A stretch of DNA of 64,000 nucleotides, from positions 1-64,000 of IMG/VR virus record IMGVR_UViG_3300035070_003528; one strand, given 5' to 3'. Positions 13,115 through 59,322 of the stretch are shown in pieces. This stretch comes from a virus. Position 1 is the first letter of the stretch; each line of letters starts with the position of its first letter. The translations under genes and the position numbers were made by a program. The notes beneath the pieces were generated by a model. It saw nothing but the letters and a program-made list of their open reading frames with translations. It did no database searches and was not told where the DNA came from.

Positions 13115-14194
13115 TCATAAACATTCCTGCCCCACATATTTCATAACCATACTTGACGCATTTTTACCATCGACCATTGCAAACAAAGCCCCACTATAAC
13201 GGTGTTCTTTTACTGCGACAGCGAATTCCTTCCTGCTCGTTTTTGGCGCAGCGTCATATGCTCGAACTATTTCCTGTGTAATATCATTAGAAACAGTATT
13301 GAATTCGTCGTACCATTCCTCTATTTGCTGAATGAATTCATCTGGAATATCAGGCATGTCTTTGCCATTTTTCCACATTTCATATGCGTTTTTTTTGCTA
13401 ATATTATTAATGATTTTATGTAACCACACATAATCATCGCCTTTTACTTTAAATCTCTGCCCGTTGCTATATAGCAAAACATATCCCTCTTGCTCTGTGC
13501 CAACTAATTCGTTAGCAGCGCAAATCACTTCCTCGTAACTGTTGAGTTCGTAAACAACCGGCGTACTAAACCCCATGTATGTCGCAAACTCTTTAACAGT
13601 TGAAAAGGGTAGTTCATCACCAGTATATCTGTCAAAAATAGCCAATAAAACCAAATCGGTTCTATCTCCATAGTTAACAACTATCGGAGACAATTCTTTA
13701 TTCTCTGGGTAAATTATTTCAAATAACAGAGTCCATGTATATGGTATCTCGTCTACATAGAAATATATATTCAAATAATTCGTTGCCCAAGCGGCCTGAT
13801 TGGAAAAAAATGAGCCACGAGTAGCAATTTTGTGTTCACCGTCTTGTCGATACAAAATACCAAGACTGCCATCAACTTTCTCAAATACATTCACGAGATG
13901 AGTACCGTTTCTTGGTAATGCAACAGATTCGCCACTTGCTCCATATTGCTGACCGTAATTAAAGAATTTTGGAAATGGTTGCGCAACTATCTCTCCAGTT
14001 GTCTTGTCAATAATCAATCCACGACAAACTCGCTCGTATGCATTCCATTCGTTAGCCCATTGCGCTTCATGAGTGTAGCTAAACAAAACCAAGCTGCCAT
14101 TGTGATCTGTTTTAATTCGGCCGTATTTTGTCCAGTCAGTTTCTCCGGCTAATAACGCATCTCTTATTTCTAAAGCGGTGTCGATTAATCTCAT
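13115..14194 (-). CDS. T4 Rnl1-like RNA ligase
   Basis: CRGLI, PFPKFFN, EKVDGSLG (KxDG), ATRGSF, FEII, EGYVL, KVKGDDY. Confidence 0.92.
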   Translation of the reverse strand: MRLIDTALEIRDALLAGETDWTKYGRIKTDHNGSLVLFSYTHEAQWANEWNAYERVCRGLIIDKTTGEIVAQPFPKFFNYGQQYGASGESVALPRNGTHLVNVFEKVDGSLGILYRQDGEHKIATRGSFFSNQAAWATNYLNIYFYVDEIPYTWTLLFEIIYPENKELSPIVVNYGDRTDLVLLAIFDRYTGDELPFSTVKEFATYMGFSTPVVYELNSYEEVICAANELVGTEQEGYVLLYSNGQRFKVKGDDYVWLHKIINNISKKNAYEMWKNGKDMPDIPDEFIQQIEEWYDEFNTVSNDITQEIVRAYDAAPKTSRKEFAVAVKEHRYSGALFAMVDGKNASSMVMKYVGQECL

Positions 14195-55215: not shown

Positions 55216-57786
55216 ATGTTAACAAGAAATAAAATTGGTTTCCATGTCGGCCCAGATGCCCCAGGGAGCAACTTGACTGGAATTGGTAACTGGATGAGAC
55301 AACTTCATGCCGCTGGAATACCGATGGTATTGAAATCAGTAGACAACTACGGCCCTATTTATGAAGCAGATAAAATAGTTGATCCAAACAATACTGTTGA
55401 CCACACATTTGTTTTTAGACTGTCTGATTCAGACTTTTATTCATTCGACACGCCACCTTATAAAGATCCTCAGTATATAAACGATCCGGAAGGTGGGGCT
55501 GTTCTACATTGGAACATGACAAAGCAAAAACTTCCTCCTGAATTCAATAAAGAACGAGTGTGGCTTGAGCTAACTAATGAAGTTGATCGCAATTTGTGTA
55601 CTTGGTTAGACGAGTTTGCCCTTAAAATAGCGCAACTAGCGAATGCCGAGGGGTATAAAGTTGCGTTATTTGGCTGGGCTGGGGGCGAACCAGAACCGCA
55701 GGGCTGGGAGGAAATGCTGGACTTCCTCCGATATTGTGGGGATAATCGCGATAAATGCGCGATTGCAATACATGAATATAGCTTTATTGTCACAGATATA
55801 TTCGATCAATGGCCGTTCAAAGTTGGTAGATTCCAATATCTTTTCGCAATTTGTGATAAATTTGGGATAAATCGGCCAACTACGTTGATTACAGAATGGG
55901 GATGGACTTTAAATGACGCACCTGGGTCTACAACTGCCCTAATAGATATTGAAGCAGTTTCAAATGTGTATAATCAGTATGACAATATACTAGGGGCAGC
56001 GATCTGGTATCTTGGCCCAGGATTTAACATTGCAGATAAGGTTCAAAAACTTATCCAGCCAGTCACGGACTGGACAATTAATTCATTCGTTGAAATAGAC
56101 GAAATTAATCCACCTATAGACGAATTGCCGTCAATAAATGGATGGGAGCAATATATGGAAACAAGTAAGATAGCAGTAGACGTAACTGTAGAAATAGAAG
56201 ACAAGGAAACATTCATTGGATTGGTGCGCGGAATTGGAAGCGCAAATGCCACAGGTGCTCAGTACAGATGGCTATACAACGATGGAACATACAATGTATA
56301 CACCGACTGGGTTGGTCTATCAGCAAGCAGCATACCACAATTAGATATACGAGGACTGGAATTCTTGGTTAGTACAAGTCGGATGTTAACCAAAACGGTT
56401 CCAGTAGAAATCGAATGCCCAAACCCTAATCCGCTCCCTGTTGTTGAGTTTCCGCTCGTTGTGGACTATTCTCACTGGCAGGGAGCAACAAACCACGTGG
56501 CTTTGAAAACAGCAGGCGTTTATAAGTTTATGTCAAAAATTACTGAACATACTGTTTATGTTGACACCGAATTTCTGTCTAGATACCAAAATGCGGTTGC
56601 TGCTGGATATAAAAAAGAAGACATCGCGCCGTATCATTTTTACCGATTCAACAAAAGCCCGGTTGATCAAGCCAATCACTTCGTCAATACATATAAATCA
56701 CTTGTGGGCAATCCAGCCTGTGCATTTGTAGCAGATGTAGAAGACGTTGATAACACTGCCGTTGGCAAACAAGGCGAATTGAAGCTGTTTCTAGATATTG
56801 TAGAATACTTAACTGGGTTCAAGCCTATTATTTATACCGGTAGCTGGTGGTGGACGGCCGCTCGATGGGGTGGTGCTGTTCCTTGGGCGAAAAACTATGC
56901 AATGGTAGAAGCCGAGTACCCGCTAGACCCAGTAAATGACTTCGTTGATTTCAATGCAGCGCACAACTGGACTAAAACACACAGCCCAGCATTGTCATCT
57001 GACTTCACGATTCATAGCTTCTGGCAATTTACAAGCAAGGCAAATGGGATTGCGTTCGGTGTGAGTAGTAAATACCTCGATGTTCAATCGTTCAATGGCA
57101 ATCTTGACGAACTACGTGCTGTTTATACAAAAAAAGGAACTGTGTTAACTGACCCGCGTCCAAATACCAATAAAATAGACATGCTACAGTATATTAGAGG
57201 GCAAAATGGCATTCAATACGAGATGCGCTTTCCAAATGGAAACCAAGAACGCTATCAAGTTCAGTGGGACGTTGCCAATCCGCAAATATGGTACATCGTC
57301 AAGGGCGAAAATCAAGGGCATTACGAGCGTTGGTCTTACGATGACAATTACATCTACCTAGAAATGGACACCTCTCCAGCAAACGCCCCCGATGGGCAGG
57401 CTGTGTATTACACCATTGACAAAAACGGCCGTTCGCCAAAATATCGTCGATTCATGTCTGTTGGAGAGGTATTTAATGACGGTGGACATGTCGTCACATT
57501 CAGAAACGTGTCAAATTGTGCAATAAATACCAGTGACCCCCGCAGTGGAAACGCTGCAAATAACACAACGTTTATTCGTGGGGCATATACAGATACTTTC
57601 TATAACAATATTGTACTAACGGATGTAATTGAGTGTTTGGAAAATACTGAGGGTCAATTCTGGGGTAAAGGATTTGGACGAGTTCGCTGGCAAAGTACCT
57701 GGGGAGAAGCCGAGATCAGTGAAATTCATTCACCCGGCTCTCGTCCAGATGTGTTGCGCCAGCATATTACTTGCCTTGGTCAATAA
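55216..57786 (+). CDS. multidomain endolysin: N-terminal glycoside-hydrolase-like barrel, GH25 muramidase and C-terminal domain
   Basis: GH25 motifs DYSHWQG, YHFY, ADVE, IIYTG, WQFTS, LD; N-terminal NE...HEY...ITEWG pattern. Confidence 0.8.
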   Translation: MLTRNKIGFHVGPDAPGSNLTGIGNWMRQLHAAGIPMVLKSVDNYGPIYEADKIVDPNNTVDHTFVFRLSDSDFYSFDTPPYKDPQYINDPEGGAVLHWNMTKQKLPPEFNKERVWLELTNEVDRNLCTWLDEFALKIAQLANAEGYKVALFGWAGGEPEPQGWEEMLDFLRYCGDNRDKCAIAIHEYSFIVTDIFDQWPFKVGRFQYLFAICDKFGINRPTTLITEWGWTLNDAPGSTTALIDIEAVSNVYNQYDNILGAAIWYLGPGFNIADKVQKLIQPVTDWTINSFVEIDEINPPIDELPSINGWEQYMETSKIAVDVTVEIEDKETFIGLVRGIGSANATGAQYRWLYNDGTYNVYTDWVGLSASSIPQLDIRGLEFLVSTSRMLTKTVPVEIECPNPNPLPVVEFPLVVDYSHWQGATNHVALKTAGVYKFMSKITEHTVYVDTEFLSRYQNAVAAGYKKEDIAPYHFYRFNKSPVDQANHFVNTYKSLVGNPACAFVADVEDVDNTAVGKQGELKLFLDIVEYLTGFKPIIYTGSWWWTAARWGGAVPWAKNYAMVEAEYPLDPVNDFVDFNAAHNWTKTHSPALSSDFTIHSFWQFTSKANGIAFGVSSKYLDVQSFNGNLDELRAVYTKKGTVLTDPRPNTNKIDMLQYIRGQNGIQYEMRFPNGNQERYQVQWDVANPQIWYIVKGENQGHYERWSYDDNYIYLEMDTSPANAPDGQAVYYTIDKNGRSPKYRRFMSVGEVFNDGGHVVTFRNVSNCAINTSDPRSGNAANNTTFIRGAYTDTFYNNIVLTDVIECLENTEGQFWGKGFGRVRWQSTWGEAEISEIHSPGSRPDVLRQHITCLGQ

Positions 57787-58186
57787 AAACCTTGCACAAC
57801 TCGTACTGCGGAGATGGCAATTCGTTATCAATTCCCTGATCCCAAATCGCAAAGCACGTATCGCGTTGTTCCTCTGTATACGGCCCCATCGGAGGTAAAT
57901 CTTGCAAAAACGGCCGTGTCGGCGGAACAATTGCTTGCGGTGTAGCAACGGATTGTAATTCTGTGAAGAAGGCTGTCGCCGTTGCGTTGAAATCAATCGA
58001 TTGAGGTGTCCATGTCGGTAATGGCGTAATAGTTGGCACGGTAATAACATCCCCTTGGGTGTTAATCACCGATGGCGCAACAGGCTGTCTATTAACCACA
58101 ACGGATAACCCATTTTGGCTCATAAGCATATACCCAACAACTAAAACAAGAATAACGAGAATTGGAGTTGATTTATTCATCTCCAT
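57767..58186 (-). CDS. membrane-anchored Pro/Thr-rich protein
   Basis: N-terminal transmembrane segment; PTITPLPTWTP; C-terminal Cys pair. Confidence 0.6.
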   Translation of the reverse strand: MEMNKSTPILVILVLVVGYMLMSQNGLSVVVNRQPVAPSVINTQGDVITVPTITPLPTWTPQSIDFNATATAFFTELQSVATPQAIVPPTRPFLQDLPPMGPYTEEQRDTCFAIWDQGIDNELPSPQYELCKVFIDQGK

Positions 58187-58281
58187 ATGATAATCAATTG
58201 CTTTTATTTAATAAACAGTACATTCGTGCCATTCGTATTGCGCTGAAAAGATATATAATATTGAAAACAAAGGAGATATTT

Positions 58282-58497
58282 ATGATACTTAAAATTACAG
58301 ATCAAACAGGACACAGTGTTGCAGATACAGATACGGATTACGACCTAGCCGTGGACTTGTTCAAGAAAGCAGTAGATCGCGGCATGTGGGGCAAGGGAAT
58401 CAAGGACGGCCGTAGCGAATTCGTTTCTGTCACGACATTGGATGAAATTCTTGATTATGACGAAGTAATTATGTTGCCTCGTCAAGTTGGTGGATAG
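58282..58497 (+). CDS. 71-aa ubiquitin-like (beta-grasp-type) protein ending in Gly-Gly
   Basis: AGGAG RBS; MILKITDQTGH...DEVIMLPRQVGG-stop. Confidence 0.6.
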   Translation: MILKITDQTGHSVADTDTDYDLAVDLFKKAVDRGMWGKGIKDGRSEFVSVTTLDEILDYDEVIMLPRQVGG

Positions 58498-58500
58498 ATT

Positions 58501-59322
58501 ATGCAGAATTCGTATCTAGATGGACTCACGCAATGGGAGTTGATACAACTTGTCGCTACATCTACTTATCAAGAAAATTCGCTACGACAGCAAACCTTGG
58601 AAGCGTGGCGGGAGATGGCGTACTATGCCCATGACAATTTCAAAGAATTCCTAACCGGCGTACTAAGTAGTGCGATAGAAGAACGTACTTATATATCAAT
58701 TAGAGTGGAAATCGTTATTCATGGCAATGCTTTTTATGATTCGTATTACATACGAAGAGTGCCTGATATTTCCTACTCATCCTCTTATCTAGAAATATTT
58801 GTTAGCTCAAATCGTTCTCGGGAATTCGCGGTTTCTTTTTCTCCGCCAAGCGAAGATATATTATTTTATCCATCGAAGATGTATGAATATATTAGTCGGG
58901 TTATCGCTGCAATTGAAGCACACATTGCAAATAATGATAATTGGCGCAGATTCGCAGAAGGGGTACATAGAACACAAAATGCGTGGCAATGGACTATTGA
59001 TGACCCTGTAAAAAAAGTAAATAAACGGGCAGAAAAACTACTGCTCTCTCATTGCACGAAAAAACAGCGCAAACAATATAAGGCAAATCAGTATTTTGTT
59101 GTGATTGGTGGCGAAACTGGCACAATGTATCGAATTAGACGTGCATCCCAAATAAACATCGACGTGTTTGTTGACGGTGAAATTGAATACAAACTCTGCA
59201 CCGTTGCCGATCCTAGAAAAAACAGTGGGCTACCAATAGAGGATCAGTTACTTGCACAGAAAACTATGATAGAATTACAGGAAAATCATTTTCTGGAGAT
59301 AGCGAAACGATGGGAACTGTAA
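58501..59322 (+). CDS. conserved phage protein, partner of the GG-terminated protein
   Basis: C-terminal RAEKLL...F.V.GG.TG..YRI...KLC...LP.EDQLLAQK...E..FL..A; starts 3 nt after the Ubl stop. Confidence 0.6.
   Translation: MQNSYLDGLTQWELIQLVATSTYQENSLRQQTLEAWREMAYYAHDNFKEFLTGVLSSAIEERTYISIRVEIVIHGNAFYDSYYIRRVPDISYSSSYLEIFVSSNRSREFAVSFSPPSEDILFYPSKMYEYISRVIAAIEAHIANNDNWRRFAEGVHRTQNAWQWTIDDPVKKVNKRAEKLLLSHCTKKQRKQYKANQYFVVIGGETGTMYRIRRASQINIDVFVDGEIEYKLCTVADPRKNSGLPIEDQLLAQKTMIELQENHFLEIAKRWEL

Follow-up and report, generated by a model that had tools for sequence, protein, structure and literature searches.

What is encoded by two adjoining small genes at positions 58282-59322 of the viral record IMGVR_UViG_3300035070_003528, of which the first 64 kb (the window) was analysed? 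The initial annotation took the pair, a 71-residue protein that ends in Gly-Gly and a 273-residue, cysteine-containing partner, for an oddity of one phage. Our analysis shows instead that it belongs, as a divergent member, to an unnamed two-gene family that is very large and carried mostly by phages. The interpretation that we favour, and which we put forward tentatively, is that of a phage ubiquitin-like protein (Ubl) with a mini-E2-like module, resembling the ubiquitin-conjugating enzymes (E2), that needs activation from outside. It builds on the conservation of the Gly-Gly end and of a single cysteine in the partner, on the linkage of the two genes across viral lineages, and on the predicted folds of both proteins.

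All the elements named in the initial annotation could be located in the sequence, on the plus strand. The small gene (58282-58497; ATG 58282, TAG 58495-58497) is preceded by the Shine-Dalgarno sequence AAGGAG (58271-58276), five bases before its start codon, and by a TATAAT hexamer read from the sequence (58254-58259). The latter is a putative −10 element only, because a scan with the sigma-70 consensus finds no matching −35 element for it and promoter-like sites around the pair are no more frequent than in shuffled sequence. The product, of the beta-grasp type by prediction, starts MILKITDQTGHS and ends DEVIMLPRQVGG directly before the stop codon (...MLPRQVGG); the GGT GGA codons of its terminal glycines (58489-58494) double as a Shine-Dalgarno-like GGNGG string 7-12 nt before the start of the partner. 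Three bases (ATT) lie between the stop codon and the ATG of the partner gene (58501-59322; ATG 58501, TAA 59320-59322), and the two genes are one translationally coupled unit. The partner is composed of an N-terminal clade-specific region without a consistent fold match (residues 1-165; 58501-58995) and a conserved C-terminal domain (residues 166-273; 58996-59322 including the stop codon) with a predicted E2/UEV/RWD-like fold. The motifs YRI (residues 210-212), KLC and LPxEDQLLAQK, the last of which reads LPIEDQLLAQK (residues 244-254), are all in this domain, and the TGC codon of the cysteine in YKLC, Cys233, is found at 59197-59199. The side-by-side placement of the two open reading frames is not due to chance, since it recurs among the many homologues that each of them has.

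The Gly-Gly end of the small protein is conserved at close and at far range. In the clade of the window, each of eight 71-residue homologues, with 62-73% identity, ends in QVGG or QIGG, as does the window protein (9/9). The latter is also homologous to a wider family of Gly-Gly proteins (hhalign probability 93.9%, E 1.6e-7, 65 columns), for which a profile of 22 diverse members retrieved 164 relatives. In the best 120 of these, whose tails were scored, 105 proteins end exactly in Gly-Gly, 12 carry 1-13 residues past it (GGA, GGC, GGAS and others), and three (P0256, P0277 and P0281) end in Ala-Gly; a proline at position −6 is found in 99 of the 105 with the exact end. The conservation of the terminal Gly-Gly, which had been posed as a check, is thereby borne out. 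On sequence grounds, the tail (hydrophobic strand)-Pro-x-x-x-Gly-Gly is probably the exposed, functional end of the protein, and the 12 extended relatives look like Ubl precursors.

Could Gly-Gly have been kept merely as the GGNGG ribosome-binding site of the partner gene, with no Ubl-like meaning to the pairing? The GGNGG string does occupy the expected Shine-Dalgarno position, and the Gly-Gly codons lie 7-12 nt before the partner start in nearly all loci. However, the codon use across 22 loci (GGC 18, GGA 14, GGT 7, GGG 4) includes all four glycine codons, which places the selection on Gly-Gly at the protein level; the commonest of them is GGC (18/43), and GGCGGC makes a poor Shine-Dalgarno sequence. 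Moreover, Gly-Gly is kept ahead of short extensions and in an in-frame fusion, where no such sequence is needed, and the whole tail, with its hydrophobic strand and the proline at −6, is conserved as protein. This explanation is already disfavoured, and we regard it as almost certainly wrong.

The partner is conserved in a different manner. Its sixteen homologues in the close clade share a strongly conserved C-terminal part of about 100 residues, including the cysteine, while their N-termini diverge. When the profile of the partner alignment was searched against 1.84 billion cluster representatives, it matched 5,372 of them at E<=1e-3, 1,994 at E<=1e-10 and 17 at E<=1e-30, and the matches listed beyond the dozen or so best cover the C-terminal ~105 residues only. 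The matching proteins are 106-377 residues long, with variable N-termini that are often coiled-coil or rich in threonine and serine. Cys233, the conservation of which had likewise been left to be checked, is invariant in 160/160 aligned representatives and in five separate family alignments (A2, A3, A4, A5 and A6). Conserved at >=95% in the 160 representatives are L181, Q189, F199, Y210, N219, C233, P245, D248, L251, Q253, K254, E258, E261 and A268, so that the cysteine is accompanied by the polar residues Q189, Y210, N219, D248, Q253, K254, E258 and E261. A histidine follows two residues past the cysteine in 71% of the partners, whereas the clade of the window reads YKLCTV and has no histidine beside it; a metal site around Cys233 was rejected since flanking histidines are missing there.

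Despite its size, the family goes unrecognized by the reference libraries. Neither protein matches Pfam, PHROGs, NCBIfam or the defence models of PADLOC, and the relatives are likewise without a match; for the small protein of the window and 10 diverse relatives, no Pfam family, including ThiS, ubiquitin and Prok_Ub, is found at E<=1. When PDB sequences were searched, single proteins and the family profile alike gave only rows at chance level, and no E2 was retrieved by the profile. Among GenBank phages, the two genes of the window have no DNA or protein match, and typical partners have none either; typical small proteins as queries found only the metagenomic records of a 595-kb uncultured phage and of Virus Rctr197k. 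Pattern scans of GTDB species genomes from two family alignments (A2 and A4) found nothing.

The two genes have stayed together over this diversity. Co-occurrence was assessed in 28 loci: the window, six close-clade contigs of metagenomic or viral origin, and 21 IMG/VR loci with upstream sequence. The last-named come from a set of 22 that represents three sub-families within the wide family. A homologous small open reading frame ending in Gly-Gly lies directly 5' of the partner in 22 of the 28 loci and a small-protein homologue ending in ...PVAG in two, so that the genes are adjacent in 24/28; in two more they are fused in frame, which brings the linked loci to 26/28, and the last two hold decayed remnants. 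As some loci are near-identical, this corresponds to about 21 independent lineages. Within the close clade, the adjacency recurs in four other contigs, and in most loci the partner starts 0-8 nt past the stop of the small gene. The co-occurrence that the initial annotation had proposed to examine is therefore found, in-frame fusions included.

Several loci deserve separate description. In L019 (3400-3618) and L021, the small-protein homologue ends ...IVMVPFPVAG, with Ala-Gly in place of Gly-Gly. The fusion is found in L029 (3242-4312) and the near-identical L030 and reads ...FVPPMQGG-LMVMLDLETN...; as Gly-Gly is internal here, its release would need a cleavage. 5' of the L029 fusion, a long open frame runs antisense to a genuine gene on the minus strand. 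We rejected read-through of the stop codon as a general route to fusions, for the two genes share a frame in the window but are in other frames in many loci. L005 (1113-1457) and L008 (2261-2521) hold a start-less remnant of the C-terminal domain of the partner with no small gene upstream, so that both parts of the module appear to have been lost together. An all-against-all comparison of neighbouring open reading frames in 22 neighbourhoods revealed no third recurrent gene common to more than four related loci. Those four belong to one phage sub-family, in which the pair often has a gene for a conserved small protein (...WTVYDHPSDYP...DDP.I.EVWL) just 3' of it (L010:4297-4536, L011:5104-5334, L013:4497-4712 and L017:4303-4512); the window is without it.

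More distant versions depart from this arrangement. Ten Bradyrhizobium plasmids carry one with swapped gene order and a small protein ending ...RLVVG; in plasmid pCB82_1 of the cultured rhizobium Bradyrhizobium sp. CB82 (NZ_CP121651.1, L033:2489-3172), a 101-residue partner consisting of the domain alone (WP_283043859.1) is followed after 160 nt by a 72-residue small-protein homologue (WP_283043560.1) that ends ...FFPRLVVG. In Virus Rctr197k (KX853510.1, L032:2309-3561), a 143-residue protein with two tandem small-protein folds, ending ...VPSTIPG, precedes a 269-residue partner with the cysteine domain, and an annotated CRISPR repeat region lies 1.3 kb 5' of the pair.

What do the predicted structures add? 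The best AlphaFold2 model of the small protein has a mean predicted local distance difference test score (pLDDT) of 81.5, the other four scoring 63-71. Its strands (residues 2-7, 10-15, 36-41, 44-48 and 61-65) and helices (20-32 and 50-56) follow one another in the order β-β-α-β-β-α-β, which is that of the beta-grasp fold. In a Foldseek search of the PDB, the matches listed are almost all beta-grasp proteins, led by SUMO, ubiquitin, PB1, the Raf RBD and NEDD8, and a wide VIA search returned PB1, the TBCB Ubl domain, BubA, TtuB, MoaD, Fubi, Urm1 and Ufm1. The models thus make it likely that the small protein has a beta-grasp fold; the element order and the top matches are of the Ubl type as had been surmised, but the scores are low.

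The presence of MoaD and TtuB among these matches raises the possibility of a sulfur carrier, i.e. of a ThiS/MoaD-type small protein that host enzymes adenylate and thiocarboxylate, with the partner using or relaying the sulfur via its cysteine for a phage-specific thio-modification. The tail ...YDEVIMLPRQVGG aligns in register with ...GDEVAFFPPVTGG of E. coli MoaD, and sulfur-carrier systems employ an E1-like (activating) enzyme, which could be that of the host, and no E2. On the other hand, the hhalign probability to MoaD is 5-10% and a Pfam ThiS match is lacking, the ~105-residue domain of the partner has no match to MoaE, ThiG, TtuA or rhodanese, and a highly variable N-terminus is ill-suited to an enzyme acting on small molecules. 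We consider a sulfur carrier very unlikely.

For the partner, the predicted model (pLDDT 78) shows two domains. The C-terminal one comprises helices 169-183 and 187-196, strands 198-202, 209-213, 218-224 and 227-234, and helices 246-259 and 261-272, which places Cys233 at the end of the predicted fourth strand, 13 residues before helix 246-259. About 18 of the ~33 rows obtained for residues 166-273 in the wide VIA search are E2, UEV or RWD folds, all with Z<=5.5 and counting a chain of the kinetochore KMN junction that we take to be an RWD domain. The best row is Ubc9 (Z 5.5, root mean square deviation 3.1, 85 aligned residues); the others include the GCN2 RWD domain (Z 4.9), VPS37A (4.2), the Vps23 UEV domain (3.5), FANCL, BRE, UBE2F, E2S and RWDD1, as well as the E2-type chains UbcH5b, Ube2W, Ubc8, UbcH10, UBE2G2 and the bacterial CdnG-E2 (8hsb_B). 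By our estimate, chains of these three kinds account for a minor part of the VIA library (48,161 chains), and it is this concentration of the rows on one, presumably rare, superfold that argues for an E2-like domain. The notion of the partner as a non-canonical E2, voiced in the initial annotation, gains support from it. By contrast, the N-terminal region gave inconsistent rows at Z<=5 (a nifX-associated protein, domain 3 of porphobilinogen deaminase, CapZ and HPF), and a second VIA pass mostly re-aligned this region to unrelated alpha/beta domains. Searches of BFVD yielded two unnamed proteins as the only convincing rows, and those of the ESM Atlas unnamed clusters only.

The mixture of E2 with RWD and UEV folds also suits a non-covalent pair, in which an RWD/UEV-like module holds the beta-grasp protein as an adaptor or regulator, with the Gly-Gly tail and the cysteine serving in binding or redox sensing. 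UEV domains hold ubiquitin, and RWD and UEV domains are non-catalytic. Their representatives named above score like true E2s, the partner is without an HPN motif, no E1 was found (see below), and the tight coupling and in-frame fusions would befit an obligate complex. Yet a surface that only binds would not usually combine a cysteine retained in every representative with the invariant polar residues N219, D248, Q253 and K254, and the prevalence of the exact Gly-Gly end, with precursor-like extensions in most of the remainder, is the signature of a reactive tail. We therefore hold a purely non-covalent role to be unlikely.

If the tail is reactive, which enzyme activates it? The absence of E1 and JAB genes that had been noted for the window holds for the complete phage: models of ThiF (PF00899), Prok-JAB (PF14464) and JAB (PF01398) have no match in its whole 101,465 bp, whereas, of 14 control genomes, all gave a match to ThiF, 11 to Prok-JAB and only 3 to JAB. 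Nor is ThiF found in five more phage records that carry the pair, of which three are at least 91% complete. In the mechanism that we envisage for a Ubl with a mini-E2-like module, the small protein would bind the C-terminal domain of the partner, as suggested by the near-obligate adjacency and the natural in-frame fusions. Since the free Gly-Gly carboxylate needs activation, an adenylating enzyme from outside the module would provide it, most simply a MoeB/ThiF-type E1 of the host. The activated tail would then be handed to the invariant cysteine as a thioester, and subsequently be moved to a target picked by the variable N-terminal region of the partner, whose sequence divergence is what would supply specificity.

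A more radical possibility is a self-sufficient tagging system, in which the cysteine domain would activate the free carboxylate and attach the Ubl to targets by itself, without any E1. We deem this decidedly unlikely, although if it were true, a minimal ubiquitin-type chemistry would be carried by thousands of phages.

Another E1-independent route has a precedent in E2-CBASS (CBASS, a signalling system against phages that is based on cyclic oligonucleotides), where a lone bacterial E2 serves cGAS without an E1, cleaving off the residue after the glycine by a Cys/His centre (bioRxiv 10.1101/2022.05.25.493364). Applied to the pair, the cysteine would cleave off a residue or domain past Gly-Gly, capture the tail as a thioester at the expense of the peptide bond's energy and pass it to a lysine. 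CdnG-E2 is among the fold matches, 12 of the 120 small proteins extend past Gly-Gly, L029 and L030 are in-frame fusions, and most partners have the histidine at +2. However, the window protein and the 105 relatives with the exact end leave no peptide bond to cleave, and YKLCTV offers no histidine next to the cysteine; as the clade of the window thus ends at Gly-Gly and lacks the histidine, such a cleavage cannot apply there. Relatives that carry extensions or are fused could use it, but as an account of the pair it is highly improbable.

A role in counter-defence was also considered, in which the pair competes with or traps the Ubl-based immunity of the host (Bil, Bub or type II CBASS), for instance by soaking up E1 or intercepting activated Ubl. 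Host systems of this kind do attack phages, as in the conjugation by Bil to tail fibres (PMC11601603). A module without an E1 of its own must meet that of the host to be reactive, and the pair resides among small unnamed genes beside lysis genes, outside the structural block. Against this, the family extends over thousands of phage lineages, jumbo phages included, and to Bradyrhizobium plasmids, a spread that we judge wider than that of one defence class. A decoy would also leave the joint retention of two genes and the variable N-terminal region unexplained, and PADLOC offers no match. Counter-defence thus appears quite unlikely to us.

Several points weigh against our preferred reading of a Ubl with a mini-E2-like module. 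To our knowledge, an enzyme must activate a free carboxylate before a thioester can form, and the module encodes no such enzyme; that a host E1 is used is purely inferred. The Foldseek scores of the small protein are weak (E 0.048-0.3, TM-score 0.26-0.46), and its VIA rows, at Z<=4.3, mix Ubls with Hfq and the RuBisCO small subunit. The partner reaches a Z of 5.5 at most, within the range that VIA calls common; its Foldseek search of the PDB gave inconsistent rows in which E2s were not top-ranked, and the C-terminal domain has no HPN motif. No sequence model of Ubl, ThiS/MoaD, E2, RWD or defence systems recognizes either protein; in Pfam, the window partner has no match at E<=1 and nine relatives have none at E<=0.1. 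The small-protein family bears no significant relationship to E. coli MoaD, the likeness being one of the tail only, and the distant versions from bacteria and metagenomes have one terminal glycine only (...VVG, ...IPG).

The genomic surroundings are those of a tailed phage. The record is a complete, uncultured phage of 101,465 bp with direct terminal repeats, in which the small gene and the partner gene are present in one copy each; portal, capsid, tail-tube, RNA-ligase and GH25 endolysin genes bear out its nature. The RNA ligase, encoded at 13115-14194 (minus strand), is of the T4 Rnl1 type (Pfam RNA_lig_T4_1, E 1.3e-17). The pair opens a rightward block of small genes. Immediately 5' of it lie a GH25 endolysin-like gene and a gene divergently oriented to the pair. 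The former (55216-57786, plus strand) is unusually long, its 856-residue product having a central GH25 muramidase domain (residues 416-609) as the sole recognized part, flanked by large N- and C-terminal regions. The latter (57767-58186, minus strand) is convergent with the endolysin-like gene, their ends overlapping by 20 nt, and encodes a 139-residue protein without a family match, the hydrophobic N-terminal stretch of which is likely a transmembrane helix; possibly, it is a lysis accessory protein.

How does the pair compare with known systems? Similar in composition are the Bil and Bub operons (PMC10557695, PMC11601596, PMC11601603), which combine a small beta-grasp-type protein bearing a reactive C-terminal glycine with an adjoining small, cysteine-bearing protein of the E2 type, as the pair would by its predicted folds. 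The setting of phage-host conflict is shared, and BubA is among the fold matches of the small protein. However, an E1 and a peptidase are present in every such operon, and the operons serve defence in bacterial genomes, while the pair is phage-borne with no E1 or JAB found, has no PADLOC or Pfam match, and contains an E2-like domain of a mere ~105 residues without HPN. With E2-CBASS (a short type II CBASS in which a CD-NTase is joined by a lone E2; bioRxiv 10.1101/2022.05.25.493364; PDB 8hsb), the pair would have in common an E2-fold protein that acts, with no E1, on the C-terminal glycine of what the adjoining gene encodes, and 8hsb_B is the CdnG-E2 chain found by VIA. There, the substrate is a 400-residue cyclase with a residue past the glycine that is removed by the Cys/His protease activity; here, it would be a 71-residue Ubl that already ends at Gly-Gly, next to a partner that in the clade of the window has no histidine beside the cysteine.

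ThiS and MoaD, which work with ThiF and MoeB, resemble the small protein in size, in the predicted beta-grasp order and in the tail DEV-x-hydrophobic-P-x-x-GG (E. coli MoaD, b0784), but a significant sequence relationship is lacking, the partner is none of MoaE, ThiG and TtuA, and the neighbourhood contains no genes of a cofactor pathway. Finally, the tail protein TAPI of phages lambda and T1, which is associated with the JAB-NlpC/P60 peptidase TAPK (PMC1779556), is also a phage-encoded Ubl with a conserved C-terminal glycine and a functional tie to its neighbour gene. TAPI, however, is encoded in the tail module next to a JAB peptidase and has a second domain past the glycine, whereas the pair is outside the structural genes, adjoins an E2-like cysteine domain and has no JAB that we could find. 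The 2006 survey of prokaryotic Ubl systems (PMC1779556) lists phage TAPI-JAB pairs and operons of E1, E2 and JAB but nothing like the pair, and the recent Bil/Bub literature (PMC10557695, PMC11601596, PMC11601603) covers E1-containing bacterial operons only. Our literature search returned no description of the two-gene module, and a phrase search for phage-encoded ubiquitin-like proteins was empty.

The bacterial Ubl conjugation systems described in the cited literature are host defence operons with their own E1, save for the lone E2 of E2-CBASS. What sets the present family apart is that a putative unit of Ubl and mini-E2-like partner, with no E1 found, is carried by viruses in thousands of sequence clusters and named by no family library. 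Judging from sequence, the pair may be an undescribed minimal protein-tagging module. It is small (71 and 273 residues), and a plasmid version is available in cultured Bradyrhizobium strains. If our interpretation is true, phages too would use ubiquitin-type tags, via a borrowed activating enzyme of the host or via a chemistry not yet described, which would have a bearing on the minimal size of an E2 and on how the ubiquitin system arose.

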